Part shown: piece by piece, positions 7,761 to 62,211 of the stretch
Layout: the number at the start of each line of letters is the position of its first letter
Position numbering within the stretch: position 1 is the first letter of the stretch
The notes under the pieces: generated by a model
What the model saw: the letters and a program-made list of their open reading frames with translations, nothing else
The model's database searches: none
Told to the model about the DNA's origin: nothing
Program-made: the position numbers and the translations under genes
From: Eledone cirrhosa
Lineage: Eukaryota
NCBI GenBank assembly: GCA_964016885.1
Contig: OZ024741.1
Location: 171,058,001 to 171,122,000 of the forward strand
DNA: 64,000 bases
Direction: 5' to 3'

Positions 7761-7811
<51 letters not shown>

Positions 7812-7957
7812 ATACTTTGGGAGGGTCATGTTGCCAATAAGAAACACACGCACCAGTTGCTTTCACTTCAATTTATTATAATAAATTTATAAATATAGGA
7901 ATTTATAAATTTCTGGTTGGTTGGTTGGTTCCACAACCAGATAGTTGTTTATATATT

Positions 7958-8000
7958 GTCAAAGTTCTTTCATCACACATTCTGTGACATCTTCAGTGAC
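7958..8000 (-). ncRNA. Type I hammerhead-like ribozyme motif in the PLE pseudo-LTR
   Basis: gtca CTGAAGA t gtcaca-gaatg-tgtgat GAAA g aa ctt tgac: stem I GTCA/TGAC, 6-bp stem II, minimal stem III. Confidence 0.7.
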
Positions 8001-8201
8001 TGGGGATTCTTTTCTTTATTTTTGTGCCTCTCCTTTGTTCTGTCCTACGCCATTTTGTTTCTGTGTGTGTGTTGTGTGCTCAGTCTGCGCATGCGCCACA
8101 TCCGGGTGTCTGTGTGTGTTTTTATTCGTATATTTATTTGTTTATTTACATGTTACCGGCTGGTTGTTTGTTCTATGTGCGTGTGTGTTTTCATTTTGTC
8201 C

Positions 8202-8519
8202 TTAATTGTAAGTTGTGATGTTGCTGTTCCACTCATATTTTCTATTTAATTTTGGTTGTAATTCTTTTACGTTTATTGCCTCTGTGATTTGTCTAAACAT
8301 TGCGTCTTTTCTGTGTGTAGATTCTATTGTTATTTCTATGTTCTCTAATTTACCCTTATGTTCTATTTTAGCATGTTGGTAGAGTACAGATGATTCTTTA
8401 CTATCTTGAAGGTCTCGCCAGTGTTCATTTATCCGTTCCCCTACACTACGAGCTGTCTCACCTATGTACACTATATTTTTGTCTCTACATTGTCCTTCAG
8501 TACATCTTATGCTATACAC
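8202..8519 (-). CDS. GIY-YIG endonuclease domain of the PLE (fragment)
   Basis: YSIRC..IVYIGETARSVGERINEH..HAKIEH..EAINVKELQPKLN. Confidence 0.85.
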   Translation of the reverse strand: MYSIRCTEGQCRDKNIVYIGETARSVGERINEHWRDLQDSKESSVLYQHAKIEHKGKLENIEITIESTHRKDAMFRQITEAINVKELQPKLNRKYEWNSNITTYN

Positions 8520-11427
8520 TACATTTCTAGTTTTACAGTTAATATGGGGGCTTATTTTACAGGTTATACATTTCTTATCTATACAGGGGGGTCTTTGAAA
8601 AGGGTATGTCTTGCTAATATGTGTTTTTACGGAGGTACCTGGTCTTTCTACTATCTTTATTTTGAGTTTATGTTTATCTAGGGCCCTTCTAAATTTGTAA
8701 GCTAATTCACCTCTAGGGTTGTATCAATGAACATTACACTCTGGTATTTATTGCTATCATACCATGAGTTTATTCTATTAGTCTTATTCCTAGTTCTTTC
8801 TGTTCTATTCCCAAATCTGCTCCTATACAAGGGGCAGGTACCATTTGCGTCATTATTTAACATTTTTTCCCATTTGGTTCTGGCTCCTCTATACACTCTG
8901 ATTTTATCTCTCTGATTGTAACCAGAGAACTGCATACGGTGGATGAAGTGTTGTATGTGTCTGTCTAGTTCTTCGGGGTTGCACATGCGGGACACGTTTC
9001 TCATCACCCGTACCAAATCCGCAATCAGTATGTTGATTTTGGTATGGTCCGAAACGGGCTGAGTTTCGGTGGATCAGATGTTTGGAAGTCATGGGTTTGG
9101 CATAATGGGAATGGAGGATTTGCTTTTTGTTATTAATGGTATGTAACCAGAGCTCTGTGTCTAGTACAGGTAATCGATGGTTGGGGTGTTTTCTTGGGTA
9201 GGCTATAGTAACTCTAATACTCTGGTGGATGGAGTTAGCTATTTGCTGGATGCTTTCCATTGTGTTTTTCTCTAGTTCCTGACTGTTCTCTAGTGGGGGT
9301 GTCTTAACTACGATGTTTATATCATCAACGAAGCGGGAGTACATCATCAGGGTTAAGGGGTCTTCTAATTGTTCTTTAAGTTTAAGTCTACTGTCCCACC
9401 ATACCATGAATAAGTTAGCTATGTCGCCTGCAATGCTAACACCAATTGCTGCTCCTTCCTCTTGGGCATATGTTTTTCCATTAAATTTGAACATATGTTC
9501 CTTAAGTGTTAATTTTATGCTGGCCCCTACCGCATGTGCAATCATTTTCTTCAGTTCATCGTGGTTTTCGGGTGTCCGCATGGCTCTGGTCCACCCATTT
9601 CATCTATCTGTGAGGGTTTTCTTGGCCATTGAGGTAATGGTAGTTGGTCTGCCTCTTGCTGGTCTTGTAGGTCACAGGTTGCTAAGGTCATATGTGTCTA
9701 GGTAATTATTACTATAGTTAAGTTTAAGTAGGAGTCCCAGCTCACTGCTATCAAGCCCACGGAACTCAACCTTGCTCTCACTGATCATTTCTACGCATTT
9801 CTCCACAGCAAAATCCACATCAATAGATCGATACAGGGACACAACATCCATACTACCTATTATGCAGTTTGTTAGGTCCCTAGATCGGTTACTCTCGCCG
9901 ATTCTGCTGAGGAGGTCCTCCGTGCTGTTACATACATCTGGGGACATTTCAATGGTGGGGCGTATGATCAGGGAGAGGAAGTAGGACAGTCTGTAGTTAC
10001 AAGCAATGTTAGCTCCACAGACTGGCCGTGTTGGTGGTCCCGCGACAGGGTCACTGCCCATTTGATGGTCTTTTCGAAGCCCATACAACGCCGGCACGTC
10101 ATTATTCTAGGCCTGGAAGTTGTTGGCAGTCCTTTTGTTGGGCTGCATTATATTCGTCCACATCACCATATGGGCATTGAGGGCTTTTCTCTATCCTCAT
10201 GCTCCTGTGGTGTTACCTCTCTTGTGTTAGTGATGTGGGGTTGCATTGCCTGGATGTAGTTTGGCAGGCTGTCAACCGACATTCTGTCAGACTTGTCTGT
10301 TGGAAAGCATGCTATCTCTCCATTACGCGAGCGCTGCATGAGCTTACGCAAGCCATTTGCAGATTTTTCTCCCAGTTGCTGGGCCTCCATTCTATTATGC
10401 TTCTTGCTATACTGTTCTATAATATTTCTAAGTTCGGATCTAGCTTTACTAAATTGTGCTTCTGTTTGTTCATCGACCTGCGACGGCAATTGCGTGCGTT
10501 TGATAAATGGTAAAGTCGTGGCGTTGACTCGTCGCAGGTCGAACGACTTATCGGAGGGATTATAAAAAGTAAAGTTCCAGGCAGCTGCTTTATGTGTACT
10601 AGTGCTATTGTTATTGTTAGTTGTGTTATTTCTATTTCTATTTCCACCAACAGCCTCATGGTTGTTTCTATGTCTCTCATTATTACTCCTGTCTCTTTCC
10701 ACTGGCTCATTGTTATTATCTACCCTAATTTGTGTGTCTGTGTGTTCGTCTTGGTTATTTTCTTTGTCCATAGTCTCCCCTCTCCTTTTAATCCTATTAC
10801 TTTCCCTTATTTCTGTGATTTCTGAGCTACTGTCATTACTTGTTTTCTGTGTCTGTGTGTTTGTTAAGATTGTGGTGGTGGTGGTGAGAGGCATTGAATG
10901 TGTGTGTGTTGTTGATGTGTGCTGTTGTTGATGTGTGTTATTGTTGTTGTCTCCGTGTGTGCTATTCTTGTTGTGTGTGTTGTTATTGCTGTTTGTGTCT
11001 GCGTGTCTGTTGTTGTTGTTTCTGAGTATGTTATTATTGTTGGTGTGTGTGTTGTTGTTATTGTTGTTTGTGTCTGTGTGTCTGTTGTTGTTGGGATGTG
11101 TGTTGTATATGGGTGTGCGTATGTTGTTACTTTTGTTTTTGTTTTTGTTTTTATTTTTGAGGCTCCAACGTAATTTTGTAAATGATTTTTCTATTTCTGA
11201 CAGACAACTAATCATATTTACCTTCTTGAATGTCGCAAATTTCGGCGGTAGTTTTAATACAGATAATTCATCAGGATCTATTGCCGTGTTGCCGTATATA
11301 TCTGTGTGTTGTTGTTGAACTCATATGTTAATGAGGTGTCGGCCATATTTATACCGTCAATTTTGTCGGGATATCTATTGGTATTCTCTACAGTATCCTG
11401 ATTTAGAGAGAAAAATCTGCAAATGGC

Positions 11428-12678
11428 TTGCGTAAGCTCATGCAGCGCTGGCGTAATGGAGAGATAGCATGCTTTCCAACAGACAAGTTTGGCAGAATGT
11501 CGTTTGACAGCCTGCCAAACTACATCCAGGCAATGCAACTCCACATCACTAACACAAGAGAGGTAACACCACAGGAGCATGAGGATAGAGAAAAAGCCCT
11601 CAATGCCCATATGGTGATGTGGACGAATATAATGCAGCCCAACAAAAGGACTGCCAACAACTTCCAGACCTGGAACAATGACGTGCCGGCGTTGTATGGG
11701 CTTCGAAAAGACCATCAAACGGGCAGTGACCCTGTCGCGGAACCACCAACACGGCCAGTCTGTGGAGCTAACATTGCTAGTAACTACAGACTGTCCTACT
11801 TCCTCTCCCTGATCATACGCCCCACCATTGAAATGTTCCCAGATGTATGTGACAGCACGGAGGACCTCCTCAGCAGAATCGGCGAGAGTAACCGATCTAG
11901 GGACCTAACAAACTGCATAATAGGTAGTATGGATGTTGTGTCCCTGTATCCATCTATTGATGTGGATGTTGCTGTGGAGAAATGCGTAGAAATGATCAGT
12001 GAGAGCAATGTTGAGTTCCGTGGGCTTGATACCAGTGAGATGGGACTCCTACTTAAACTTAGCTGTAGTAATAATTACCTAGACACATATGACCTTAGCA
12101 ACCTGTGCCCTACAAGACCAGCAAGAGGCAGACCACCTACCATTACCTCAATGTCCAAGAAAACCCACACAGATAGATGGAATGGGTGGATCAGAGCCAT
12201 ACGGACACCCGAAAACCACGATGAACTGAAGAAAATGATTGCACATGCGGTAGGAGCCAGCATAAAGCTAACCCTTAAGGAATATATGTTCAAATTTAAT
12301 GGAAAAACATGTGCCCAAGAGGAAGGAGCAGCCATTGGTGTTAGCATTGCAGGCGACATAGCTAACTTATTCATGGTATGGTGGGACAGTAGACTTAAAC
12401 TTAAAGAACAATTAGAAGACCCCTTAACCCTGATAATGTACTCCCGCTTCGTTGATGATATAAAAATCGTAGTTAAGACACCCCCACTAGAGAACAGTCA
12501 GGAACTAGAGAAAAACACAATGGAAAGCATCCAGCAAATAGCTAACTCCATCCACCAGAGTATTAGAGTTACTATAAGCTACCTAAGTAAACACCCCAAC
12601 CATCGATTACCTGTACTAGACACAGAACTCTGGTTAGATACCATTAATAACAAAAAACAAATCCTCCATTCCCATTAA
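11428..12678 (+). CDS. PLE reverse transcriptase core (truncated)
   Basis: TDK.GR, PALYGLRKDH, PTRPV, SMDVVSLYPSI, QEEGAAIG..IANLFM, SRFVDDI and LPVLD motifs. Confidence 0.88.
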   Translation: MRKLMQRWRNGEIACFPTDKFGRMSFDSLPNYIQAMQLHITNTREVTPQEHEDREKALNAHMVMWTNIMQPNKRTANNFQTWNNDVPALYGLRKDHQTGSDPVAEPPTRPVCGANIASNYRLSYFLSLIIRPTIEMFPDVCDSTEDLLSRIGESNRSRDLTNCIIGSMDVVSLYPSIDVDVAVEKCVEMISESNVEFRGLDTSEMGLLLKLSCSNNYLDTYDLSNLCPTRPARGRPPTITSMSKKTHTDRWNGWIRAIRTPENHDELKKMIAHAVGASIKLTLKEYMFKFNGKTCAQEEGAAIGVSIAGDIANLFMVWWDSRLKLKEQLEDPLTLIMYSRFVDDIKIVVKTPPLENSQELEKNTMESIQQIANSIHQSIRVTISYLSKHPNHRLPVLDTELWLDTINNKKQILHSH

Positions 12679-13202
12679 GTCAAACCCATGACTTCCAAAC
12701 ATCTGATCCACCGAAACTCAGCTGTTTCGGACCATACCAAAGTCAACATACTGATTGCTGATTTGGTACGGGTGATGAGAAACGTGTCCCGCATGTGCAA
12801 CCCCGAAGAACTAGACAGACACATACAACACTTCATCCACCGTATGCAGTTCTCTGGTTACAATCAGAGAGATAAAATCAGAGTGTATAGAGGAGCCTGA
12901 ACCAAATGGGAAAAAATGTTAAATAATGACGCAAATGGGACCTGCCCCTTGTATAGGAGCAAATTTTGGAATAGAATAGTAAGAACTAGGAATAAGACTA
13001 ATAGAATAAACTCATGGTATGATAGCAATAAATACCAGAGTTTAATGTTCATCGATACAACCCCTAGAGGTGAATTAGCTTACAAATTTAGAAGGGCCCT
13101 AGATAAACATAAACTCAAAATAAAATAGTAGAAAGACCAGGTACCTCCGTAAAAACACATATTAGCAAGACATACTCTTTTCAAACACCCCCATGTATAG
13201 AT

Positions 13203-13577
13203 ATGAAATGTATAACCTGTAAAATAAGCCCCCATATTAACTGTAAAACTAGAAATGTAGTGTATAGCATAAGATGTACTGAAGGACAATTTAGAGACAA
13301 AAATATAGTGTACATAGGTGAGACAGCTCGTAGTGTAGGGGAACGGATAAATGAACACTGGCGAGACCTTCAAGATAGTAAAGAATCATCTGTACTCTAC
13401 CAACATGTTAAAATAGAACATAAGGGTAAATTAGAGGACATAGAAATAAAAATAGAATCTACACACAGAAAAGAGGCAATGTTTAGACAAATCACAGAGG
13501 CAATAAACATAAAAGAATTACAACCAAAATTAAATAGAAAATATGAGTGGAACAGTAACATCACAACTTACAATTAA
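13203..13577 (+). CDS. GIY-YIG endonuclease domain of the PLE
   Basis: CITC..NCKTRNVVYSIRC..YIGETARSVGERINEH..LNRKYEW. Confidence 0.87.
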   Translation: MKCITCKISPHINCKTRNVVYSIRCTEGQFRDKNIVYIGETARSVGERINEHWRDLQDSKESSVLYQHVKIEHKGKLEDIEIKIESTHRKEAMFRQITEAINIKELQPKLNRKYEWNSNITTYN

Positions 13578-13778
13578 GGACAAAATGAAAACACACACGC
13601 AAATAGAACAAACAACCAACCGGTAACATGTAAATTAACAAATAAATAAACGAATATAAACACACACAGACACCCGGATGTGGCGCATGCGCAGACTGAG
13701 CACACAACACACACACAGAAACAAAATGGCGTAGGACAGAACAAAGGAGAGGCACAAAAATAAAGAAAAGAATCATCA

Positions 13779-13821
13779 GTCACTGAAGAGGTCACATATT
13801 GTGTGATGAAAGAACTTTGAC
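13779..13821 (+). ncRNA. Type I hammerhead-like ribozyme motif
   Basis: gtca CTGAAGA g gtcaca-tattg-tgtgat GAAA g aa ctt tgac. Confidence 0.7.
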
Positions 13822-14762
13822 AATATATAAACAACTATCTGGTTGTGCAACCAACCAACCAACCAGAAATTTATAAATTCCTATATTTATAAATTTATTA
13901 TAATAAATTGAAGTGAAAGCAACTGGTGCGTGTGTTTCTTATTGGCAACATGACCCTCCTAAAGTATAACAATATCGGTTTCAACACACGTTTTCAGATA
14001 AAGAATCTTGCTAAACAAATTCAGAAACGAAATATATATATATATATATATAAAGTGAAAGATTATGACACTAATACTTTTATTGGTGTATACAAATTAC
14101 TTTCACTATGTCTGAATACTCAGAAACGGAGAATGTGGGGCTATGAAAAGATTGAAAGTTTGAAAAATTGCTTTTACAGAATCATAATATCCCTTGAGTG
14201 AAAGATATTATTAAAAAATATTTTTGAAAAACATGTAAAAGATATTATGAAAAATTGGGAAGCCATATCAGAAAAAAAAAATGTATATATCTACTTGCAG
14301 AGTTGGCATCTCTCTTGTTTAAATTGATGGAATTCAAAAATATTTTGAAAACATAAATCGTAGGCGTTTCATGTTCCGAAACTCAACTTACGCTCTCAGA
14401 CGTGAACACGAGTGTGCATTTATTGTTGTGGGCTCTCTCGATCCGAGATTTGGTCTCATCCACGTCAATTGTTTTGTTTTTATCTTCTAACATAATCTCT
14501 CAAGTAGCTATAAAGACTCACATTGAAACATGGAATCGTTGATGGCTCGTTACTAGTAGTGATCAGTCTTCTTCTTCTCAGTTGACGTTTCTAGATATCT
14601 TTTTCTTTCTGTTTTGGTCAACGTATTATACATGCAGCCAAGATGATAACTATTTCTCCATTTCCTTCTATCCATTGTGACAGATGATTCGTTTTTGTTT
14701 GGTTGTTTCAAAATGTTGGGTTTCGCTTCAAAACTTCTCTCGTCTTTGCTTGTGGTATTCCG

Positions 14763-20923: not shown

Positions 20924-21131
20924 CAGATAGGGTGTGGTAAAAGACCAGGTGGACTATAACCAACCAGAGTACTGGATACTTGGTGTGGTAGAGTGAGTAA
21001 TATGAAAAGATTCAGGAACCCGACGGCTAAGCTCCTGTCGCTTCGACAGCTAGATCCGAATGTTCGAATGTTCAGATCTAGCTGCCGAAACCGCCAGAGC
21101 TCAGCCGTCGGATTCCTGAGTCTTTTCATAT
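20924..21131 (-). repeat. Fold-back insertion (family X): ~130-bp imperfect palindrome plus ~75-nt tail
   Basis: Arms at 21000-21058 and 21075-21131. Homologous to 21911-22081 and 38465-38660. Confidence 0.85.
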
Positions 21132-22859: not shown

Positions 22860-23110
22860 AACCTGTTCCCAAACAGACCTATTATATTAAATCTTTGTTG
22901 GGTTTTTGCAATAAACAAATATCATTATTTCTGAAGACAGCATATATATGTGTAGGTATGTATATTCCCTCTGATAGTTTGTAAAAATGTTACATAGATC
23001 TATATGATATACATACCAACATACACATATATATCCTAGAAACGATTGTAAAATTATGAATTTTTTAATATAAAGAACTGTTTCTTTGTTTTTATTCATT
23101 ATTTTTATTA

Positions 23111-23114
<4 letters not shown>
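22860..23114 (+). mobile_element. PLE pLTR fragment (family Y), tail-less, ending in (TA)n
   Basis: Reverse-complement homolog of 26369-26622 and direct homolog of 58735-58915. Confidence 0.8.
22927..23054 (+). ncRNA. Hammerhead-like motif with ~101-nt extended stem II
   Basis: attt CTGAAGA [atatatatgtgta ggtatgtatat..atatacatacc aaca tacacatatatat] GAAAC GATT GTA aaat. Confidence 0.6.
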
Positions 23115-23144
<30 letters not shown>

Positions 23145-23147
<3 letters not shown>

Positions 23148-23408
23148 TATTTTATAGAAGGAGCTTCTACAGGACTAGTACTGTTTCATTCAGATGAAAT
23201 CTTCAGGAAGCTGGGTGTCATATTAAGTTCTGGTATTTTAATATAAATACCAGAACTTAATATGACACCCAGCTTCCTGAAGATTTCATCTGACTGAAAC
23301 AGTACTAGTCCTGTAGAAGCTCCTTCTATAAAATAAAATTTTTTTACTCTGCCATGTATTGAGTACCTTACTTACTGTGGTTATCCCTGACTCAACCCGG
23401 GACCTACG
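23145..23408 (+). repeat. Fold-back insertion: ~94-bp arms plus ~70-nt tail, with a hammerhead-like core
   Basis: Arms at 23145-23238 and 23244-23338. CTGAAGA..GAAAC at 23277-23300. The tail tactc..gagtacc is homologous to 32125-32190. Confidence 0.9.
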
Positions 23409-24786: not shown

Positions 24787-24889
<103 letters not shown>

Positions 24890-24909
24890 AGTAAATTATA
24901 AATGTAAAC

Positions 24910-25140
24910 ATGTAAGTATATTTTTGAAACGGTGCGCGAGTTTGAAAATTAGAAATTAGAAATTATAAGCTTTCACCGTATTTTATACTAAAGAAATTTC
25001 TAGCCTCATAGATGAGTGTTGCCGTACATGTACGGCAACTCTCATCTTTTTCCATTTCTCCGAGGGTTATAAACCCCACTGTCAGGCTAGAAATTTCTTT
25101 AGTCTAAAATACGGTGAAAGCTTATAATTTCTAATTTCTT
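24910..25140 (-). repeat. Fold-back insertion (family Z) with an internal deletion in one arm
   Basis: Outer arms agaaattagaaattataagctttcaccgtattt..ctagcct, with a central hairpin gatgagtgttgccgtac-at-gtacggcaactctcatc. Homologous to 48905-49153. Confidence 0.85.
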
Positions 25141-25329: not shown

Positions 25330-25565
25330 AAATAGCTTAGAGTTTAGACTCAGAGAGGTCATTTACAATCATTTCAGCTCTAGGAATCGCTTCTGAGCAG
25401 TATAAATTAATATTTGATGAACATTTACATGTTATAGTTGCAATTGACTAATAAGATCGCTAGAGTGAAAAATCTTAATTCTTATGTTGTTGAATTAAGA
25501 TTTTTCACTCTAGCGATCTTATTAGTCAATTGCAACTATAACATGTAAATGTTCATCAAATATTA

Positions 25566-25570
<5 letters not shown>
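25330..25570 (-). repeat. Fold-back insertion: ~79-bp arms plus ~70-nt tail
   Basis: Arms 25402-25480 and 25492-25570 are perfectly complementary by eye. (TA)n lies on both sides. Confidence 0.92.
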
Positions 25571-25630: not shown

Positions 25631-25842
25631 ATTGTTGTAGGATGTTTAGAGCGTCCGTAAGTGGTAAGCCGTTTGAGCACTCGATGCTCTGTAAGAGCAG
25701 TGTATGATATCATATAAGAAACGGAGAATCAATGTTGCGACGAATAAAATTTATTAGACATATTACAATTGTATTACGATTGTAATGTGTCTAATAAATT
25801 TTATTCGTCGCAACATTGATTCTCCGTTTCTTATGTGATATA
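25630..25842 (-). repeat. Fold-back insertion: ~65-bp arms plus ~75-nt tail
   Basis: Arms at ~25706-25770 and 25775-25841. The minus-strand tail reads cactgctc-ttaca-gagcatcgagtgct. Confidence 0.9.
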
Positions 25843-26133: not shown

Positions 26134-26429
26134 TAAGGCATAGATATACATATAATTACACGTATACATATAAACACACACACAAATTTATATATATATA
26201 CATATGTGTATGCATTTATGGTAAATAGACGTGCACACATGCCCCGTTTATAGTATGTTGACATGCTTAAAGTTTTTCATCATCTTTCAGGTTTCAACCC
26301 AATGGTTATGAGTCAATATATATTTACTGAAAGGCGGAATATCTGACACACCCTATATATATATATATATAAATTAATAAAATAATGAATAAACAAAGAA
26401 ACAGTTCCTTATATTAAACAAAATTCATC

Positions 26430-26561
26430 ATTTTACGATCGTTTCTAGGATATATATGTGTTAGAGTTGGTATGCATATTCTATAGATCTATGTACAATA
26501 TTTATACAAACTATCAGAGGGAATATACATACCTACACATATATATGCTGTCTTCAGAAAT
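26430..26561 (-). ncRNA. Hammerhead-like motif with extended stem II
   Basis: attt CTGAAGA..long hairpin..GAAAC GATC GTA aaat. Confidence 0.62.
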
Positions 26562-27510
26562 AATGATATTTGTTTATTGAAAAAACAAAGATTCAATACA
26601 ATAGGTCTGTTTGGGAACAGGTTTTGAATTGACCAATAGAGAGATAGTGAGGGTCCAGGTAGTAATATAGTAGTAGAAGAACCTTAAATTATGGGTAGAG
26701 GAAGGTAGATTTCAGTTTTGGATGGAAAAGAATTTTATGAATGAAGGATTATTTGACCTCAGAAATAATTTTATTTGTTCATTGAATAAAACCAACAAAG
26801 ATCTAATATATTCTGTATGTTTGGTAAGAGGTTTAGAATTAACCAATAGAAAGTTAATAATTGGCCAAATGGTAAAATAATAGTAATTGAAGCTTATTTT
26901 AGGGGTGAAAATAGGTCAGGAGGTCAGTAAAAGGTATACAAGCAGTTGCTGTTATAAAATAGTAATGCCAATACAAATATATTAGGTGACTAAAGTTTTA
27001 CGATAAGAATATTAGTGAAAAAAATACATCTATGAAAAGAATATAAATTAATTTAATTGATGGGTATATTTATATTGATAAAATTATACTAATACATATA
27101 GATATGATAAATACGAGTTAGATGCAGTTGAAAAGTGCTGTTAAAGATGAGGGGAAATTAAAAGAATATAAAAATAATATATATATACTTATATATATAT
27201 ATATATATACACATATATATACACATAGACACACACATATACACACATATATATACACATATGTATACACATATACATATATATATATATATATACATAT
27301 ACAAGCATATATACATACATACATATATATACACACATACACACTTACATATACATATAATTATTGGGGGGGGGGGTGGAATTAAATTTATTAGTGAGAA
27401 ATAATAAATATATATAGTTTTCAAGGAACATAGAGTCATAACCTGAAGTTAAAGCAAAATATAAGTTTACTTAATGGTATCAGTTTTAGGAAATGATAGT
27501 TGTAAGAAGG

Positions 27511-27740
27511 AAAGCAAAATTATGTGGTTCATCAGTAGTAGAATATTAATTATAGGTTAACTAAATTAAAAATAGTTTATATATTAATTTCTAAAGTGTA
27601 TATTAATTAGGTTTATAATATTTAAAGCAGAATTATGTAGTTCATCAGTAGTAGAATATTAATTATAGATTAACTAAATTAAAAATAGTTTATATATTAA
27701 TTTCTAAATTGTATGTTAATTAGGTTTATAATATTTAAAG
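27511..27740. repeat. 113-bp direct tandem duplication in the PLE 3' UTR
   Basis: aaagca.aattatgt.gttcatcagtagtag at 27511 and 27624. Confidence 0.85.
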
Positions 27741-27892
27741 GTTTTTCTCAGTTTATGATTACACGATATTATTAATTCCTGTCGCTTATTTAATAGGATA
27801 TCCTTAGATTTCATTATTTCAAAAAGTTCTTGCGAACATAATCTACATTCATATCTACTATTTTGATAAGGGGTGGCCCTTTTGAGCACACT

Positions 27893-28505
27893 CTAGGTCA
27901 GGTCATAATCTATATTCCTCTTTCTATAACTATTAATTATTTCAGCTAGAGATGTTGTATTAGCTAATTCAGCATTTTTAAAACTATGTTTGTGGGTATT
28001 AAATCTTACCTTAAATTTGTTAGAGGTAGCTCCTATATATGAATAAATTGAGTCCTTAGTGTTAACTTTACAATTATATACTATGTTATTAACAAGGCAA
28101 TTTCCTTTTAATGGACAGTTTGCCTTGTTTCTACAGTTACAACTTTTCGTGAATCCTGTATCTGAGGAGTTATTATGGTTAGTTTGATGTACTGGTGGCA
28201 TACTCATGGTTTTTTTAACATTTATATGCATTATAGGCACTTATATTTTGTTTTATGTTTTTGGTTGTTGAGTAGGAGAATTTAACCGTTGATCTATTTA
28301 AGATTTGATGGTATTTGTGGTTTGGCGGGAAGTTTTTCTCTAGGATATTAAAGAATTTTTTAGGTATATTATCCTTAATTTGTAAATTAAATGGAGCATT
28401 ATACCAAGTAACTCGTCTATTACGGTTTCGATGTTGTTTATTGTTTTTATAGGATACATCCTGATGTTTATTAAGAGAATTATTGTTAATGACCTCACCA
28501 CACAC
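27893..28505 (-). pseudogene. PLE linker plus GIY-YIG endonuclease (frameshifted)
   Basis: ORFs 28215-28505 and 27893-28240 carry CNC..CPL.G.C, IVY and YIG motifs. Confidence 0.85.
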
Positions 28506-28619
28506 ATTTTTAGTTAGATTTATTGATTTAGGTGTTTTAGCTTGTTTATTAGGAGTTTTATTATTAACATTTATTAGAGTTGTAGGATGAGTAGTTTTTT
28601 GAGAGTTACTATACTGTAT

Positions 28620-28764
28620 ATTATTAATTTATCTTGACTCTGTTTTCCGTTTATTTTTCACCGAAAGTAGTTTTTGAATGCATCTTTTCTTTTCATGATA
28701 TCCGAATTACATTGAGTTCTTCATACGGATTGGACACTACCGTAAACTTTTGGTAGATTTATCT
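28620..28764 (+). mobile_element. Inverted 3' tail of family Y PLE
   Basis: Homologous to 58905-59043, where the same sequence directly continues the pLTR. Confidence 0.8.
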
Positions 28765-28792
28765 ATATATATATATATATATTTATGCGTGA

Positions 28793-32929: not shown

Positions 32930-35468
32930 TAGAAGGGATATTTAATTTGTTGGAAATACAACAAATATAAATGTTTATAACTGATTCAGAGCACTCGCCA
33001 GATTTCTGGAGTAAATATTCAATGATATTAAATAAATGGAAACTATATTTATAAAACCATATTTATTCAATTATATATATTTCAAGGGTACCAAAATGTT
33101 GATAAGCTATCATCAGATAAAATACAAAATGTTTTATAAATATTTGACATAACCAAGGATAATATATATTAACGTTTCAAGTTATCCCTAGAAAGTGAAG
33201 GGAAGAGAAAAAACAGATATTTCAAATTAATAATATGAGTATGCAAATGAGGTTTATGTAAAAGGGCTGAAAAAACGTTATTTTTGACGCTATGGAAAAT
33301 TTAAATAATTATGATAAGTTATTGTATGGGTAGGAAGGAAGAAAAAGAGAAAGGAATAACGTTAATTTATTGGGAAAAAGTTTGTTACCTGTATTATGAG
33401 TTATAATATTGTATATATAATTTATTAGATTATATGTAGAATTATGGTTGTAAGTATTTTTAACTTATTACATTAGGATAGGTTATATGTATATAAATAT
33501 CTATATATATATAAGTTGCATATGTATTGATTATTTATATATCAAATATGAGTTACGAAGGGTGTTGAAATTGTATTTTCAAGTTGTGAGATTAGAATAA
33601 TATATGGATTCAAAGATTTTGTTCAACATTGAGAATGTATTCAGAATATTGTTTATTTAACGAAGCTATATAGATCATCAAACAAAAATAAATCGTTAAA
33701 GAAGAAGGAAAATAGGAAGAAGGAAAAGGAAAAGCAAGACCACTTAAACGTTAATTTGGGGAAAATATACTCCGACATTTGTCTATATTATGTATATATT
33801 TATATGGAGAATTATTTATCTTATTATAATAATATATAAATATCTATATATATATATTAATAATAGCATATGTATTTTTATTAAAAGGATAGTTTGTTTA
33901 TAATATGAGTTACGAGGTATGTTGATTTTGTGTTTATAAATAAATATTTTAGAAGATCTGATAAAAAATCTTCTACTACCCTCTCACATGAAACTTAAAA
34001 AGCAAGAATATAGACTATTCAATATCTTGGAAAACGATTTCGAAAGCACCTGCGTACTGAAATACGGCTTTATCAAGATTCTGTAAATTGTGTATTTAAG
34101 AATTTTTTTATATAATTAATTGTAAAAACTCTATTAATCTCAGAACAGAGATATTTAGTTCTTGCAGATATCGCCAAAATTCTACAGTCAGAACGATATG
34201 TAACTTATAATATACTTATAATATTCCTAATAATCTCCAAAATGATCCTATCTGCTCTAACAATTTATATTTTTAATACTTTTAATATATTAATATCTCT
34301 AAATCATAATATCTCTAAAATTTCTCATAATATGTGTGTATGTGTATAGATATTTATATATATTTATGTACTTCTATATAATTCTAATTTTAATTTTAAT
34401 TTTAATTTTTATTTTCTTTATTTTTTTTTATTTTTATTTATTCCTTATTCTTCCAATGACAACCTCTAAAGCTAATTTTTAAATGTACATTTTAATTTAA
34501 AACATTATCAATTTTAACTACCTATTTATTTACATAAAATGCAAAATCAACATCCCTCGTAAATCATATTACGAACAACTACCTATTAATTTATTTATTT
34601 ATAAACACAAAATCAACATACCTCGTAACTCATATTATAAACAAACTATCCTTTTAATAAAAATACATATGTTATTATTAAAATATATATATAGATATTT
34701 ATATATTATTATAATAAGATAAATAATGTCCGAATATATTTTCCCCAAATTAACGTTTAAGTGGTCTTGCTTTTCCTTTTCCTTCTTCCTATTTTCCTTC
34801 TTCTTTAACGATTTTTTGTTTGATGATCTATATAGCTTCGTTAAATAAACAATATTCTGAAAACATTCTCAATGTTGAACAAAATCTTTGAATCCATAAA
34901 TTATTCTAATCTCACAACTTGAAAATACAATTTCAACACCCTTCGTAACTCATATTTGATATATAAATAATCAATACATATGCACCTTATTATATATATA
35001 GATATTTATATACATATAACCTATCCTAATGTAATAAGATAAAAATACTTACAACCATAATTCTACATATAATCTAATAGATTAAATATACAATATTATA
35101 ACTCATAATATAGGTAACAAACTTTTTCCCAATAAATTAACGTTATTCCTTTCTCTTTTTCTTCCTTCCTACCCATACAATAACTTATCATAATTATTTA
35201 AATTTTCCATAGCGTCTAAAATAACGTTTTTTCAGCCCTTTTACATAAACCTCATTTGCATACTCATATTAATAATTTGAAATATCTGTTTTTTCTCTTC
35301 CCTTCACTTTCCAGGGATAACTTGAATTTCCTTGATTATGTCAAATATTTATAAAACATTTTGTATTTTATCTGATGATAGCGTACCAAAATGTTGGTAC
35401 CCTTGAAATATATATAATTGAATAAATATTGTTTTATAAATATAGTTTCCATTTATTTAATATCATTA
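32927..35468. mobile_element. 2.5-kb AT-rich fold-back element (family W): ~0.9-kb inverted arms, hammerheads facing outward, tail on the left only
   Basis: Arms at 33021-33947 and 34591-35467. CTGATGA..GAAA at 35372-35408 (+) and ~33080-33116 (-). (TA)n on both flanks. Homologous to 61745-62062. Confidence 0.9.
35366..35425 (+). ncRNA. Hammerhead-like motif
   Basis: CTGATGA tagc gtaccaa-aatg-ttggtac cctt GAAAT ATAT ATA. Confidence 0.6.
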
Positions 35469-38464: not shown

Positions 38465-38660
38465 TAACGAAGAAGTTGTGGTAAGGAACCAGATGGACCA
38501 TAACGCACCAGAGTACTCAATACTTAGGGTATTAGAGTGGGTATTAAGAAAATGTATGACCCCGACGGCAGAGCTCAAGCCGTTTCGACGGCTATTTCTG
38601 GGTCCAGAAATAGCCGTCGAAACGGCTTGAGCTCTGCCGTCAGGGTCATACATTTTCCTA
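38465..38660 (-). repeat. Fold-back insertion (family X)
   Basis: Near-perfect palindrome at 38543-38660 centred at ~38602. The tail at 38465-38542 carries cactc..gagtact on the minus strand. Confidence 0.9.

Positions 38661-40957: not shown

Positions 40958-40958
<1 letters not shown>
40424..40958 (-). mobile_element. 3' fragment of a second, diverged R4-like REL retrotransposon flanked by (CATA)n
   Basis: CTVVE..KISEKENIYAELMKNLQILHPDYTFRFMPVIIG.LG..KICKTF (40660-40958), plus a 3' UTR fragment at 40424-40520. Confidence 0.78.
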
Positions 40959-40988
<30 letters not shown>

Positions 40989-41050
40989 TGTATGTATGTA
41001 TGTATGTATGTATGTATGTATGTATGTATGTATGTATGTATTTATGTATG

Positions 41051-41500
41051 TTATCTCTTTCTCTTAATTTCGAGTATATTTTTTTGACCGGCCACCTTCC
41101 TGGTGGCAAGGTTGTAAAAGAAAAGAAATTGTCATCCCTTGAATCGCAAGAATGTTTTGCAAATTTTGAAAGTGCCAGCTATCGCAGCCATTTGTAGACT
41201 ATGAATTAGGGAGCTGCGCTCTTAGTCCGCAAATCCAAGTTCAGTCATACTTTGGTCCAAGCGGGTTGGTATATAACCCGTAGCTCCAATAATGATGGGT
41301 ATGAATCTAAAGGTGTATCTTGGATACTGGATTTGTGAACTCCTCATCAATGGTCCGTAGATGTCATCCTTCTCCTGTCTTTTTCTGACAACGTTTACAT
41401 CAAGTGGGCAGCTGATCTCCACAACAGAACACGTTTTCAATGTGTGGTCCCAAACAACAATATCAGGCCGGTTGTGCTTTAATTTGGTGGCAGTTTTTAT
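41051..41500 (-). mobile_element. 5'-truncated copy of the R4/Dong-like element with (CATA)n on both sides
   Basis: Direct repeat of 41530-41979 with a few substitutions. Confidence 0.93.
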
Positions 41501-41610
41501 GTATGTATGTATGTATGTATGTATGTATGTTTTCTCTTTCTCTTAATTTCGAGTATATTTTTTTGACCGGCCACCTTCCTGGTGGCAAGGTTGTAAAAGA
41601 AAAGAAATTG

Positions 41611-44600
41611 TCATCCCTTGAATCGCAAGAATGTTTTGCATATTTTGAAGGTGCCAGCTATCGCAGCCATTTGTAGACTATGAATTAGGGAGCTGCGCTT
41701 TTTGTCCGCAAATCCAAGTTCGGTCATACTTTGGTCCAAGCGGGTTGGTATATAACCCGTAGCACCAATAATGATGGGTATGAAGCTAAAGGTGTATCTT
41801 GGATACTGGATTTGTAAGCTCCTCATCAATGGTCCGTAGATGTCCTCCTTCTCCTGTATTTTTCTGACAACGTTTACATCAAGTGGGCAGCTGATCTCCA
41901 CAACAGAACACGTTTTCAATGTGTGGTCCCAAACTACAATATCAGGCCGGTTGTGCTTTAATTTGGTGGCAGTTTTTATTTTCAGGTTCCACCAGTATTC
42001 CTTAGTGCCATCTGTCTCAATATATTCTTCCTCGTTTGTTGTTAATTTTGTTTTCCGAAGTGCGTTCCAGATAGTTCTAGCTATCCCATCGTGTCTCATG
42101 GGGAGGTAGTAGCGAGATGACATTCTTTCGCAGCTGGCAACAATGTGGCTTACATCCTCGATCTTTGTTTTACATAGCCTACATTTATTGTCAGCTGCTG
42201 GCCCTCCTCTTTTGTGCAGCAGATATTTGGTAGGGAGTTCTTGTTCCTGTATTGCATAGAGATATCCCTCAAGGTGTGATGTCATAAACTTGTCGGAACT
42301 CCATGCCAGGCTTTTTGAGTGGTTTATCCCCTCTATGGTCTGTGTTTTACGCCTCAAGTATCCATGCACAACTTTCTCTGTAAATTGGTCAATTTTTTTT
42401 TCTTGTTTGAACATTGAATAGGATCTTCCGATTTCTCTGGGTGAGAGATTTATATCAGGCTTTATTCCATATCTCTCCTCCAGATCAGTCGCTATTCTAA
42501 TGATATTTCTTTTTTCATGCTCATAAACCTGAGCAAGATGGTCGCCAACCTTTTTCCTCTGTTGAAGGTGTTGCTTCAGTGTTACTATCCGGGTCTCATA
42601 TGTTGTTAATATTGATTTTAGACCCCGGCCACCTTCCTTGCGTGAGAAGTATAGCCTATCCACATCACCATTGATGTTAAAGTTCCCAGTAACACTGAGA
42701 AGTTTACGAGTTCTAACATCCATCTCACTTAGTTCTTGCAATGACCAGTTCAGTAGGCCAAATGTTGGCGTTATAATTGGCACAGCATAGGTATTGTGGG
42801 CAATGTATTTGTTGTATGCTGACAGTTCTGATGACCATATTTTTTTTACTCTTCTGAGGTATTCAGTTCTGGTTCTCTCCTTATTTATGGGTCCATCATA
42901 TCTGACATTCTCATCCTGTCCAAGATATCTGTAGTTGTCACCTGACTGCAGAGGTTGTATTGTCAGGCCGTTCATATCTAGATTTCTAGAGGAGGGCACA
43001 GCTCTTCCACGTTTTACTGCCAAATATGCACACTTGGACTCACCAAATTTCATTTTGATGTCGGTTGAAAATTGTGTAATGAGGTCCAATTGTTTCTTGA
43101 TGTCATTGATATTTGGCCCATACAACTTCAGGTCATCAACAAAGAAAAGATGGGAGATACTTCTGGGCCCACTTCTTTGTCCACCTTGTTTCCTGAGTAG
43201 GTAAGATAGTGGATTCAGTGAGAGAACGAAGAGTAGTACTGACAAGCTATCACCCTGAAAGATGCCCTTCTGGTAATGTATCCTATCAGTCTTAACCTGC
43301 TCCTTCTCACCTCTAAGGATCAAATTGGTGTACCAGTTCTTGGTCAGGCGTTCAACAGCAGCTACTAATGGTTGTGGGACTTTAGCTAACTGTAAAGCCT
43401 TAATAATCCACCCATGAGGTACACTATCAAATGCTTTTTGATAGTCCAGCCACACGACAGTCATGTTTCTGCGATTCTTTGTTGTTTTTTCCTGAATCAT
43501 TTTGTTAGTTAGTAGGTGATCTATGCAACCCCACACCTCCCTCTTTCCACCAGCTTGCTCAGGTGTTATGATGTTGTTGGTAGCACAGTGATCCTGTAAG
43601 AACAGGTTAAGGCACCCAGTATATAATTTATACATGATGTTTTGGCAGGCAATTGGGCGGTAATTTTTAGCAAGGGTGGTTTGGCTATTTTTGGGAATGA
43701 GGAGAGTAGTGGCAGTTGATAACCATCTGGGCAGTTCTTGTGTGCCCTTAATGGTTTCTGTAAACAGCCGTATGAGATCTTGCCGATAGAAAGTGAAATT
43801 CTTCAACCAGTATCCTGTAATGAGGTCTGGGCCTGGCGATTTCCTATTCGACATTTTCTGTAGAGCTGTTTCCAGTATTGACCCATCTATGTCATATTGT
43901 TTTGTCTGGACATGTTGGCAGTAGTCCTGTTCCAGTTGTTTTAGCCAATTAGCTTGTCTGTTGAATCCGTCATCCGTTTCCCATACAGATCTCCAGTAGT
44001 TCTCAACCTGTTCTTTTGAAGGGGTGTCGTTTACAGGGATTGAGCTTTTGCCACCGAAGCTGCGATAAACTGATTTAGGATCTCTGGCAAACAATCTATT
44101 TAGCACTTGTCGTTTATGGGCTGTTGACTTATATTTTAGTCTTTCTGTTGTAGCTGTGAGTTGTTGTTTCAACTGGTGTAATTTGGAGTTCAAAGTTTTA
44201 AATTTGGTATCTCCAAATCGTCTCTCTAACTTTTTCTTTAGGTCTTCCTGGTGTCGTGTGAAGTTTCTCTCTATGTTGCATTTCATAACGACTGCGATGT
44301 GTGAGATACTTCGTCTCAGGGACAAAATTTTGGTTTTTAAATTTCGCATCCACGCTGGTTCAGGCTTTCTGTTTGTATCTTGATTGCGTGGTTTTAGATG
44401 TGTGTTATATGATAGCAATGTGACAGCTGAAACATATAACAAAACATTGAGCGTTTCAAATGTCGTTTCTACACCTTTAGATCGTATAGCCTTCAGATAA
44501 TTGCCAGCTATTTCGTTCACCGCTTCCAATTCCAATTTAGTGGGTTCTTTACTGACTCTAGTGTTGTATGGTCTGTCACTCACATTAAGGCTGTGTATCT

Positions 44601-45120
44601 CTTGAAACATATCGTTCCATATCACTTGTAGGGTGCCCACAAGTTTTTGGTGCTCTGTTTGTTCAGTAGAGTCATGAATTTCAGACTCGTTGTTGATGTG
44701 GTGACAATTACTATTAGAGTCAGCTGACCTTTCTCGCTGTTCTTCAGTGGAAGTGGGATGGATTTCAGCAAAATTGTTGGTGAGCTGTTCACTGTTAGAT
44801 TTAGCCGGCCATTCTCTTTGTCTGTCAGTGGAGGTGGGGTGGTTGTCTACAAGGGCTGTATTTGTAGTATCACTCGATTCCGTTAGATGTATCAATTTAC
44901 ATCTAATGATACGTTTTGCCTGTTCATTTAGATGCTTTGGAGAAAAGTCTAATTCTGGGTGTTTGGAGTTCCATAAAGTTTTTAGCCTTTGCATAAAACC
45001 GAACTTTTGGGGTTCAGATTGTTTGTATGCTTCATATAATTCTTTGTTAAGCTCGTAGCTCCACTGTATACAACGGTTGTAATTGCGATTTGGTCGAAGG
45101 AGACTTGTACTTTTTGCCAT
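41611..45120 (-). CDS. Reverse transcriptase with CCHC finger and restriction-like endonuclease (R4/Dong-like polyprotein)
   Basis: KSPGPD, NYRPIAC, WLDYQKAFDSVPH, GIFQGDSLS, FFVDDLK, YRYLG, CRLC..H..SC and RHD..RPDIV..EIS..K motifs. Confidence 0.96.
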   Translation of the reverse strand: MAKSTSLLRPNRNYNRCIQWSYELNKELYEAYKQSEPQKFGFMQRLKTLWNSKHPELDFSPKHLNEQAKRIIRCKLIHLTESSDTTNTALVDNHPTSTDRQREWPAKSNSEQLTNNFAEIHPTSTEEQRERSADSNSNCHHINNESEIHDSTEQTEHQKLVGTLQVIWNDMFQEIHSLNVSDRPYNTRVSKEPTKLELEAVNEIAGNYLKAIRSKGVETTFETLNVLLYVSAVTLLSYNTHLKPRNQDTNRKPEPAWMRNLKTKILSLRRSISHIAVVMKCNIERNFTRHQEDLKKKLERRFGDTKFKTLNSKLHQLKQQLTATTERLKYKSTAHKRQVLNRLFARDPKSVYRSFGGKSSIPVNDTPSKEQVENYWRSVWETDDGFNRQANWLKQLEQDYCQHVQTKQYDIDGSILETALQKMSNRKSPGPDLITGYWLKNFTFYRQDLIRLFTETIKGTQELPRWLSTATTLLIPKNSQTTLAKNYRPIACQNIMYKLYTGCLNLFLQDHCATNNIITPEQAGGKREVWGCIDHLLTNKMIQEKTTKNRRNMTVVWLDYQKAFDSVPHGWIIKALQLAKVPQPLVAAVERLTKNWYTNLILRGEKEQVKTDRIHYQKGIFQGDSLSVLLFVLSLNPLSYLLRKQGGQRSGPRSISHLFFVDDLKLYGPNINDIKKQLDLITQFSTDIKMKFGESKCAYLAVKRGRAVPSSRNLDMNGLTIQPLQSGDNYRYLGQDENVRYDGPINKERTRTEYLRRVKKIWSSELSAYNKYIAHNTYAVPIITPTFGLLNWSLQELSEMDVRTRKLLSVTGNFNINGDVDRLYFSRKEGGRGLKSILTTYETRIVTLKQHLQQRKKVGDHLAQVYEHEKRNIIRIATDLEERYGIKPDINLSPREIGRSYSMFKQEKKIDQFTEKVVHGYLRRKTQTIEGINHSKSLAWSSDKFMTSHLEGYLYAIQEQELPTKYLLHKRGGPAADNKCRLCKTKIEDVSHIVASCERMSSRYYLPMRHDGIARTIWNALRKTKLTTNEEEYIETDGTKEYWWNLKIKTATKLKHNRPDIVVWDHTLKTCSVVEISCPLDVNVVRKIQEKEDIYGPLMRSLQIQYPRYTFSFIPIIIGATGYIPTRLDQSMTELGFADKKRSSLIHSLQMAAIAGTFKICKTFLRFKG

Positions 45121-45305
45121 GATGAGTTCGTCTATTCACTAATATTTTGTATTTATTTTTTTTAAATAGTCGATGATCTTCTTTAAAAGTTACGACAAAG
45201 TTCTGTCAGAATCAAATTTAAAGTTATTCACAGCTTGGGTAATATTTCTTTTCAGTTAGTTTTTAATTCTACAACTGTGTTTTAAACGTTGTTCTTGAAT
45301 CGTTT

Positions 45306-48904: not shown

Positions 48905-49153
48905 ATATCGCCGTATTTTGACTAAAGAAATTAAAGACATTATTTAGCCTGATAGTGGGGTTAAGAACCCTCGGAGAAATGGAAAAAGATGAGTATTGAT
49001 GTACGTCAATACTCATCTTTTTCCATTTCACCGAGGGTTCTTAACCCCACTATCAGGCTAAATAATTTCTTTAATTCCTTTAGTCAAAATACGGCGATAG
49101 CTTAACTTTCTAATAATTTCAAACTCACTCGCTGTTTCGAAAATATTCTTACA
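48905..49153 (+). repeat. Fold-back insertion (family Z): ~95-bp arms plus ~55-nt tail
   Basis: Arms at 48905-49000 and 49003-49099, axis at gatgtacgtc. (TA)n flanks. Confidence 0.9.
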
Positions 49154-49240: not shown

Positions 49241-49248
<8 letters not shown>

Positions 49249-51030
49249 GTGTAAGGAATTCTTTTACAATGGAATTAGCTCGAAAGGAAATATTCCTGAG
49301 CCGTGTATAAAAGTAATATATATGAGTAATATATATGTTGAAACAGATACCAACATATCTGTATTTATATTGCAAAAGAAAGTTAGCCAGACTGAAGAAT
49401 ATTAATTATTATACCACAGTTCGTCCACATCGATTTAAAATAATAATAATAATAAATCGACAAAAACTAGTTGTGCTGCCAAATGGCAATGATGTTTATA
49501 CATATTTAAATTTCAAAGTCAAACCTGTTCAGTAGATAAGTTTAAACCTCAAAATCCAAACATGTTTCGAGATGGATATAAGTGTAGGAATATCATGCCA
49601 CTGCTCTCCTCAGTAAACATCCAGAGACAATTGATAAGCTTCACTTCTAAATAATTTAAAAGACTGTGTGACGCACATGGGTTCACAGATTCAGGCTAGT
49701 CTCATAACCGTACTGCTAGAAATAACAGTCGTATATATGAGGCGAATTTTAGCTCGACGAAGAGCCGTTATATTAAGTGTAAGGAATTCTTTTACAATGG
49801 AATTAGCTCGAAAGGAAATATTCCTGAGCCGTGTATAAAAGTAATATATATGAGTAATATATATGTTGAAACAGATACCAACATATCTGTATTTATATTG
49901 CAAAAGAAAGTTAGCCAGACTGAAGAATATTAATTATTATACCACAGTTCGTCCACATCGATTTAAAATAATAATAATAATAAATCGACAAAAACTAGTT
50001 GTGCTGCCAAATGGCAATGATGTTTATACATATTTAAATTTCAAAGTCAAACCTGTTCAGTAGATAAGTTTAAACCTCAAAATCCAAACATGTTTCGAGA
50101 TGGATATAAGTGTAGGAATATCATGCCACTGCTCTCCTCAGTAAACATCCAGAGACAATTGATAAGCTTCACTTCTAAATAATTTAAAAGACTGTGTGAC
50201 GCACATGGGTTCACAGATTCAGGCTAGTCTCATAACCGTACTGCTAGAAATAACAGTCGTATATATGAGGCGAATTTTAGCTCGACGAAGAGCCGTTATA
50301 TTAAGTGTAAGGAATTCTTTTACAATGGAATTAGCTCGAAAGGAAATATTCCTGAGCCGTGTATAAAAGTAATATATATGAGTAATATATATGTTGAAAC
50401 AGATACCAACATATCTGTATTTATACTGGCTAACTTTCTTTTGCAATATAAATACAGATATGTTGGTATCTGTTTCAACATATATATTACTCATATATAT
50501 TACTTTTATACACGGCTCAGGAATATTTCCTTTCGAGCTAATTCCATTGTAAAAGAATTCCTTACACTTAATATAACGGCTCTTCGTCGAGCTAAAATTC
50601 GCCTCATATATACGACTGTTATTTCTAGCAGTACGGTTATGAGACTAGCCTGAATCTGTGAACCCATGTGCGTCACACAGTCTTTTAAATTATTTAGAAG
50701 TGAAGCTTATCAATTGTCTCTGGATGTTTACTGAGGAGAGCAGTGGCATGATATTCCTACACTTATATCCATCTCGAAACATGTTTGGATTTTGAGGTTT
50801 AAACTTATCTACTGAACAGGTTTGACTTTGAAATTTAAATATGTATAAACATCATTGCCATTTGGCAGCACAACTAGTTTTTGTCGATTTATTATTATTA
50901 TTATTTTAAATCGATGTGGACGAACTGTGGTATAATAATTAATATTCTTCAGTCTGGCTAACTTTCTTTTGCAATATAAATACAGATATGTTGGTATCTG
51001 TTTCAACATATATATTACTCATATATATTA

Positions 51031-51038
<8 letters not shown>
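49241..51038. repeat. 528-bp unit: ~2.2 direct copies followed by ~1.15 inverted copies, hammerhead-like core in each, (TA)n flanks
   Basis: tatattaagtgtaaggaattc at 49241, 49769 and 50297. Inversion junction at 50425/50426. Confidence 0.95.
50726..50790 (+). ncRNA. Hammerhead-like motif (also on the minus strand at ~49554-49618 and ~50082-50146)
   Basis: gttta CTGAGGA gag..tgg..cca.ctc GAAAC AT GTT tggat. Stem I is weak and G-U rich. Confidence 0.5.
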
Positions 51039-58734: not shown

Positions 58735-59041
58735 TGACGGCATGTATATGTGTAGGTATGTATATTTCCTCTAATAATTTGTAATATTTTTACATAGATC
58801 TATATAATATACATACCAACACACATATAAATCCGAGAAACGATCGTAAAATGAAGATCTTTTTAATATAAGGAACTTGTTCTTTGTTTTTATTTCATTG
58901 TTTTTATTAATTTATCTTGACTCTGTTTTCCTATGATTTTTATCGAAAATTTTTGAATGCATCTTCTCTTTTCATGATATTTGGATTACATTGAGTTCTT
59001 CATACGAATTGGACACTACTGTATATTTTGGTAGATTTATC

Positions 59042-59043
<2 letters not shown>
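58735..59043 (+). mobile_element. Family Y PLE pLTR including the 3' tail, ending in (TA)n
   Basis: Joins the 22938-23114 homolog directly to the 28620-28764 homolog. Confidence 0.82.
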
Positions 59044-61744: not shown

Positions 61745-62062
61745 AAGTTTTATTTAAAATTGTTGGGTTACAACAAGTAAATATTTTATAACTGATATAA
61801 AGCACTCGACAAGTTTTGGGAGTAGATATACGATATTAAACAAATGGAGACTATATTTATAAAACCATATTTATTTCATTATACATATTTCAGGGATACC
61901 ATATTAAAAATATGGTACGTCAAAATTATTTATAAAACTATTTATATATTGTATTTTATCTGACGAAGGCATGCAATATTTTTAATATGGTATCCCTGAA
62001 ATATGTATAATGAAATAAATATAGTTTTATAAATATAGTCTCCATTTGTTTAATATCGTATA
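61745..62062. repeat. Short fold-back of family W, tail on the left
   Basis: Arms at 61828-61915 and 61975-62062. Homologous to 32940-33100 and 35360-35467. Confidence 0.88.
61953..62016 (+). ncRNA. Type I hammerhead ribozyme candidate
   Basis: ATTTTAT CTGACGA agg.atgc.atatt-ttt-aatat.gtat.cct GAAAT ATGT ATA ATGAAAT: 7-bp stem I, long stem II, AUA triplet. Confidence 0.7.
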
Positions 62063-62211
62063 TATGTATATATATATATATAAACCGGAGAGCAAATATT
62101 TATTAAATGTACAGATTAAAGTTTAAGCAAAAAGAGCTGCTTTCATCCTTTTACGGGTCAAATGTGAAGGCAGCGATTCTTTGCTTAATCTTTAATCTGC
62201 ACATATAATAA

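Follow-up and report, generated by a model that had tools for sequence, protein, structure and literature searches.

Layout of the focal insertion and its element family

The window analyzed here, a 64,000-nucleotide stretch of Eledone cirrhosa DNA, contains one dead head-to-head insertion of a Penelope-like element (PLE), whose two halves end at two fixed points, T and S, 133 bases apart. On the left lies a 15-nt (TA)n remnant of the microsatellite target (26354–26368), followed by the S arm (26369–28623, minus strand), a 5′-truncated PLE copy that ends at the tail-less point S (26369). This arm is 2.25 kb long, corresponds to −2353..0 of the natural copy L106 (0 = S), and comprises the end of the reverse transcriptase (RT) region, a linker, a GIY-YIG endonuclease, and a 1.35-kb 3′ UTR/pLTR. 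The opposing T arm (28621–28765, plus strand) spans 145 nt, or −11..+133 on the L106 scale (+133 = T), and consists of the last 12 nt of the pLTR (28621–28632) and the 133-nt tail (28633–28765), which runs up to T and is followed by the right (TA)n (28766–28782). The arms meet at a 3-nt microhomology, TTA (28621–28623), with loose ends at 28621/28623, and the junction, when checked for microsatellite sequence, contained no (TA)n. No read piece listed from other samples crossed the junction, which counts neither for nor against it. The initial annotation had described a minus-strand arm ending tail-less beside (TA)n with its tail inverted at the opposite end, and the sequence agrees. It also gave a tail of ~135 nt at 28620–28764 with an 11-nt overlap; this layout stands, with the tail corrected to 133 nt ending at 28765 and the duplicated piece to 12 nt.

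Judged against open natural copies, a broken ORF remnant occupies 27716–28623 (minus strand). It retains WYNAPF, the CxCx5C linker, the VY..YIG endonuclease, CxxC, NKRxE, and CxH; it is 5′-truncated, lacks the RT core, and carries a frameshift near 28215–28240 and an in-frame stop at 27893–27895. To call this PLE coding was therefore an overstatement: the locus is a dead fragment, and nothing points to a host function. Two single-armed elements elsewhere in the window had been cited as copies, one ending at the same tail-less point (22860–23114) and one with contiguous pLTR and tail (58735–59043). Both structures were found, at 22860–23116 and 58736–59043 (both plus strand), and the copies are older relatives: the tail-less one is ~90% identical to L106, and the tail-bearing one, from an older subfamily, ~82%.

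In the natural tandem copy L106 the unit is 4190 nt, and the tail is the 133 nt directly after S, within the 5′ UTR of the unit that follows and before its ATG. The open natural copies L144, L142, and L106 have a single ORF in which a YRDD-type RT precedes a C-terminal VY..YIG (GIY-YIG) endonuclease. CNCRNKANC, CRLCSQE, NKRQE, and CNH, present in both the window copy and L144, fit CxCx5C, CxxC, and CxH around conserved E and N residues, while L106 carries RWR (a conservative variant of RWK, also seen in homologue P0005) and DKT in place of DKG. A protein search returned 278 homologues at E ≤ 0.001, with YRDD in 120 of 120 among the matches listed; a Pfam search of the family ORF scored no domain. 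The two-armed sample and the focal locus are flanked by (TA)n. The diagnostics given for the Hydra clade in the relevant part of its description are GIY-YIG, RWK, DKT, CxCx5C, CxxC/CxH, (TA)n targets, and a hammerhead motif in the pLTR (PMC8557442). On these motifs, rather than on a tree with named references, the element is assigned to the Hydra clade as a new family, in line with its earlier description as a bona fide PLE. It shares with that clade the C-terminal GIY-YIG, DKT, CxCx5C, CxxC, CxH, (TA)n targeting, and hammerhead motif, and differs in its RWR (RWK in the clade), its 4.19-kb unit (<3 kb in the clade), its long linker, and its 1.35-kb 3′ UTR.

Reading the pLTR by eye, we located a type I hammerhead-like motif at 26427–26564 (minus strand), with a predicted cut between 26434 and 26433. 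Set against the hammerhead consensus, the motif has a CUGAAGA core, a stem II of ~100 nt, GAAA, and a palindromic minimal stem III. Stem II folds in prediction, and the z score was −3.8 for the L106 pLTR plus tail; in Rfam, no hammerhead was matched, the only matches being of microRNA models to hairpins. Stem II, at ~100 nt, is unusually long and stem III is the palindrome CGATCG, and stem length varies among sister subfamilies. At the predicted cut (~−63) several arms end, between −54 and −71, and a sharp peak is absent. S and T each lie directly after AUUUAU(CU), 3′ of a predicted hairpin, the motif at both being AUUUAUCU.

Pairing of tail-bearing and tail-less ends

Exact motif counts over the 3.0-Gb genome gave 1316 matches to the S motif, 499 to S followed by the tail, 633 to S followed by (TA/CA), and 7466 to a tail 27-mer, sister subfamilies included. 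Two unselected samples were then scored. The first, the first 100 S-motif matches on C1, represented 74 loci and 75 events (the L116 event was closed using L254). Forty-two of the 75 had two arms, one ending at T and the other at S, and neither T/T nor S/S occurred among the two-armed events of this sample. The remainder comprised three off-rule or disrupted events (L094, L095, L134), four two-armed events whose far end was lost, and 26 single-armed copies (15 S, 11 T). The second sample, the first 100 tail matches, contained 7 internal and 93 terminal tails, and yielded T+S in 41 new events plus 4 in common with the first. No T/T was found among its terminal tails; 48 of the 93 were single-armed or had a far end beyond the fetched stretch, and four of these 48 extend past an internal tail and may have T as their end.

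Together, the unselected samples hold 83 inverted copies with one T and one S end, no T/T, and no adjacent S/S. If ends were chosen independently, about half of the pairs would be mixed, because T and S ends are about equally common (499 vs 633). Four events were off-rule or disrupted: L134 (T and +47), L174 (T and −47), L094, and L095. Spacers or complex junctions are present in three counted events (L121, L138, L148). From the S+tail and S+(TA/CA) lists we additionally picked nine T+S pairs and one S/S pair (L263), whose arms lie 7 kb apart with 3.7 kb of non-family DNA between them. In most copies, the position of the S end is the same to the base. Among single-armed S-ended copies, (TA)n lay within 10 nt of the 5′ end in 7 of 13, and therefore S ends arise without a hairpin.

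These counts bear on whether the tail at 28621–28765 could instead be a short element that inserted independently at the 5′ end of a copy already present. Tails are abundant, as the 27-mer count attests, and tail-only fragments do occur (L018, L023, L181). Against such an origin, the pairing of one T with one S end in the 83 unselected copies indicates that the tail is not a separate insertion, and the same layout recurs, always head to head, at L012, L098, L114, L137, L140, L141, L150, L161, and L164. The initial annotation had held that an independent insertion would bring its own (TA)n to the junction, where there is none, or leave no genome-wide excess of inverted tail/tail-less pairings, whereas the excess is strong. 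Body and tail also share a subfamily. The focal tail is 97.7% identical to subfamily A and 90–93% to four sister subfamilies, the focal pLTR 99.5% and 88–95%, respectively, and subfamily A is a minority, with 10 of 100 sampled tails. By these identities, both focal arms are assigned to the same minority subfamily, which is more than chance. An independent insertion of the tail is thus already largely refuted, and we regard it as highly improbable.

Arm lengths, 5′ ends, and templates

Arm lengths were tabulated for 90 events (41 + 40 + 9; L116 and L207 were left out), counted in locus bases with later insertions included. The S arm was longer by >30 nt in 37 of the 90 and the T arm in 21, and in 32 the arms agreed within 30 nt. 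Arms often differ by kilobases; where the difference exceeded 500 nt, the S arm was the longer in 17/90 and the T arm in 8/90. In 13/90 the arms overlapped by ≤20 nt, and in the other 77 the stretch upstream of S was present twice. Tail-arm 5′ ends near S were rare, with 0 of 100 tail matches between −20 and +5 and 1 of 90 in the arm table; the tail arm of L164 stops near +5. Of 29 tail arms in a highest-identity sample drawn from an older subfamily, 5 ended between −21 and 0, so there may be a weak subfamily effect on tail-arm ends at S. An L1-like collision at S was considered and rejected, as tail-arm 5′ ends show no pile-up there. The initial annotation had noted the 11-nt overlap and likened the locus, as a twin-priming snapshot, to L1. 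An L1-type reading, with the first cDNA halting at the point where the second one starts, is not supported: the focal overlap is no signature but one point in a continuum, and arms overlapping by ≤20 nt are the exception.

The published reading of PLE inversions is self-priming (PMC3846280), and the one-sided tail has been attributed to resolution by the endonuclease (PMC8557442). A T-primed cDNA would fold back to copy itself, the endonuclease would open the hairpin at S, and unequal arms would reflect later palindrome deletions. One T and one S end would then follow automatically, and the 32/90 symmetric events, whose arms are often identical, are explained equally well by fold-back. An S arm longer than the T arm is not directly producible in this way, so that in the 37 events of this kind, the focal locus included, the S arm cannot be a copy of the T arm. 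Fold-back cannot directly yield the focal locus because its long arm has 2.2 kb absent from the short one, and the short arm has a tail absent from the long one. Taken alone, the structure is compatible with a symmetric hairpin insertion followed by one-sided deletion; that later step aside, the asymmetric loci argue against self-priming fold-back. Further points against it are the S-only copies with (TA)n on both sides (7/13), the persistence of near-perfect palindromes with 1.5-kb arms (L117), and RT initiation at the tail-less site, reported in vitro for another PLE (PMC11167929). We judge fold-back with later deletion to be improbable.

The 5′ ends of both arms share a sharp hot spot ~194 nt upstream of S, the A within TCATT. 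It coincides with the 5′ edge of the hammerhead-like motif (26564). The hot-spot band holds 29 S arms and 26 T arms of the 90 events, and in 44 of 75 junction rows the templated sequence starts exactly at the hot-spot A. In raw reads from two other samples, the hot spot showed both loose ends and strand-switch joints, and T showed loose ends. The hot-spot motif resembles an initiator, being a partial match to the consensus. A promoter and start site have been placed within the Penelope pLTR (PMC2377424). The hot spot is likely the RNA 5′ end reached by run-off and likely a transcription start. Ten of the 44 rows were set aside (8 SINE-adjacent, 1 other family, 1 small deletion). An untemplated G preceded the hot-spot A in 10 of the remaining 34 rows (for example L154, L167, L177, L190, L244), 2 of the 10 being ambiguous. 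The G is sometimes on both arms and occurs at neighboring positions too; a copied RNA cap is possible, as a weak lead only. Separately, a SINE-like repeat has its 3′ end exactly at −194 in L037, L091:713–925, L119, L138, L143, L163, L189, and L261. Where these loci were mapped, the element resumes variably (−177 to −189), like variable target duplications, and the pattern may have arisen by insertion at ATTATT on several occasions or by template jumping upon reaching the RNA 5′ end.

Whether one RNA or two served as template was approached through arm sequence and length. In 31 subfamily-A events, an indel sub-lineage was present in both arms in 7, in neither in 24, and in mixed arms in 0; as a column test took in 14 alignment-edge columns, we rely on this sub-lineage count and not on p-values from the columns. 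Equal-length arms off the hot spot were in excess (9/54 vs 2.4 expected, p = 0.0004), also with both arms >260 nt (4/23 vs 0.95 expected, p = 0.01), a result consistent with two rounds of copying of a single RNA up to a common broken end, or with fold-back in some events. Short symmetric arms are often identical and share private variants; later homogenization could account for these. Four events combine an arm ending in the hot-spot band with a far longer partner, an arrangement that requires either a second RNA or a single RNA with two pLTR copies. Inverted insertions with arms running through complete tandem units (>4 kb) were observed at L264, L122, L116/L254, and L041/L042, which implies templates of more than one unit; in L264 both arms are of this kind.

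Two RNAs from the same source locus might instead be held in a dimeric complex, whose built-in asymmetry would set one subunit at T and the other at S. This would produce the overlapping arms (77/90) without strand displacement and would account for the four events just described. A dimer has been predicted for the anole protein (PMC11167929), and dual priming has been postulated for L1 (PMC2837659). On the other side stand the lack of mixed sub-lineage arms (0/31) and the excess of equal-length arms at arbitrary positions, and the absence of T/T and S/S needs an additional reason. A shared sub-lineage could also come from one active source locus per cell rather than from one molecule. We consider two RNAs unlikely, if somewhat less so than fold-back.

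Probable priming at two sites and its relation to published systems

The reading we favor, and hold to be probable, is priming from both target strands. The endonuclease would nick both strands of the (TA)n target, and the 3′ ends would pair with 2–4 nt of RNA, UAU at S and AUA at T. RT would be primed at T by one strand and at S, which lies 133 nt upstream, by the other, and the template would probably be a single RNA molecule. The two antisense cDNAs would terminate separately and be joined head to head by microhomology or filler. At the focal locus, the T-primed cDNA would have reached 145 nt and the S-primed one 2.25 kb. The PLE RT is not known to have an RNase H. The RNA would survive its first copying. 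Sequence upstream of S would thus usually be copied a second time, and the two cDNAs would in many cases reach a common RNA 5′ end, ~194 nt upstream of S, by run-off. What is observed is the geometry, the common subfamily of the arms, the pairing rule, and the unequal arm lengths; the nicking of both strands, the priming, the single RNA, and strand displacement are deduced. The initial annotation's core idea, one insertion with two primings and a fixed second priming point, is upheld by this reading.

A bolder and tentative extension, which we think somewhat less than an even chance, is that priming from two strands at two sites is the standard mode of Penelope integration, replacing self-priming. 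An RT dimer would hold one RNA at two AUUUAUCU signals 133 nt apart, each 3′ of a hairpin and one per target strand, and the same RNA would be copied twice, often to its capped 5′ end. If true, this single route would account for the tail and the inverted pLTR as well as for the fold-back 'mini-elements' and the kilobase-scale asymmetric inversions.

The layout itself has precedents. An inverted pLTR with a tail 'optionally present' on one, and inversions read as self-priming, were described in 2013 (PMC3846280), and an inverted 5′-truncated copy with a tail often at one end only in 2021 (PMC8557442). The focal locus is a limiting case of the latter layout and not a new structure. As far as these accounts of complex insertions extend, ours are alike in their head-to-head arms, one-end tail, partial tandems, hammerhead pLTR, and (TA)n targets. 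The published tails are 30–40 nt and that of the focal family 133 nt; here the one-tail rule was counted (83 events, T/T 0), and tail-less arms are often much longer, which published self-priming does not directly produce.

For PAc, the Poseidon PLE of Anolis, both target strands were nicked and extended in vitro, and RT started at two sites bounding its tail (PMC11167929, 2024). No difference in start site was seen there between the strands, which counts against the reading favored here. PAc and the focal family agree in having a tail that is the stretch between two 3′ ends, in internal priming past the pLTR, and in AT-rich targets. Hammerhead cleavage is likewise unneeded in PAc, and most focal-family arms run through the predicted cut site. 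They differ in that no strand bias was reported for PAc, whereas focal-family insertions use a different site on each strand, and in that the tail lies in the ORF of PAc and in the 5′ UTR of the focal family. The main text and supplement text of PMC11167929 do not connect the two sites to inverted copies.

The insertion works like twin priming but is not L1-type. In L1 twin or dual priming, as outlined in PMC2837659, both strands prime and two antisense cDNAs lie head to head, the geometry of the focal locus. The second site is not fixed in L1 but is fixed in the focal family, and L1 leaves non-overlapping fragments with an internal deletion, whereas focal-family arms usually overlap (77/90). 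The focal family further differs from L1 in having no poly(A), and target duplications are unreadable inside (TA)n.

The layout (2013, 2021) and the two in vitro start sites (2024) are thus already known; a statement linking them was not found. Our literature search turned up no paper tying PLE inversions to two-site priming (a 2004 PNAS paper and 2005/2006 reviews may hold such a model), and the passages considered from a 2026 retrozyme preprint do not address it. PMC8557442 treats the origin of PLE inverted repeats and tails as an unsettled question, and the 2024 in vitro work goes as far as first-strand initiation (PMC11167929). The focal family offers thousands of young insertions and a long, easily scored tail, and loci at which neither arm can copy the other separate two-strand priming from fold-back. 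The value of the family-wide rule and the asymmetric cases is that they make the mechanistic question testable: the prediction for the in vitro assay already in use is that any target molecule with extension on both strands carries one T-start and one S-start product.

Two-site priming would also account for the genome's many short hairpins in (TA)n. Among the other window palindromes inspected, 10 of 15 have a 56–94-nt extension of one arm before the microsatellite, and the one-sided tail rule looks general. Fold-backs with such tails lie at 7808–13971, 21000–21131, 23145–23408, 24888–25139, 25331–25568, 25631–25841, 33022–35466, 38548–38657, 48909–49096, and 61826–62063; the first, a large PLE in inverted form, retains remnants of RT and GIY-YIG. 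The window also contains an open 1174-aa LINE-type RT ORF (41611–45135, minus strand; RVT_1, zf-RVT) with a duplicated 3′ end and related pieces at 1–1118 and 40958–41976, the copy at the window start being 97% identical. A nearly perfect 1.2-kb palindrome with a 528-nt tandem duplication, 99–100% identical, occupies 49246–51034 and is either very young or an assembly feature. Elsewhere in the genome, L233 and L240, 5 Mb apart, match in both junction and flank, which points to either a segmental duplication or a variant of a sub-lineage.
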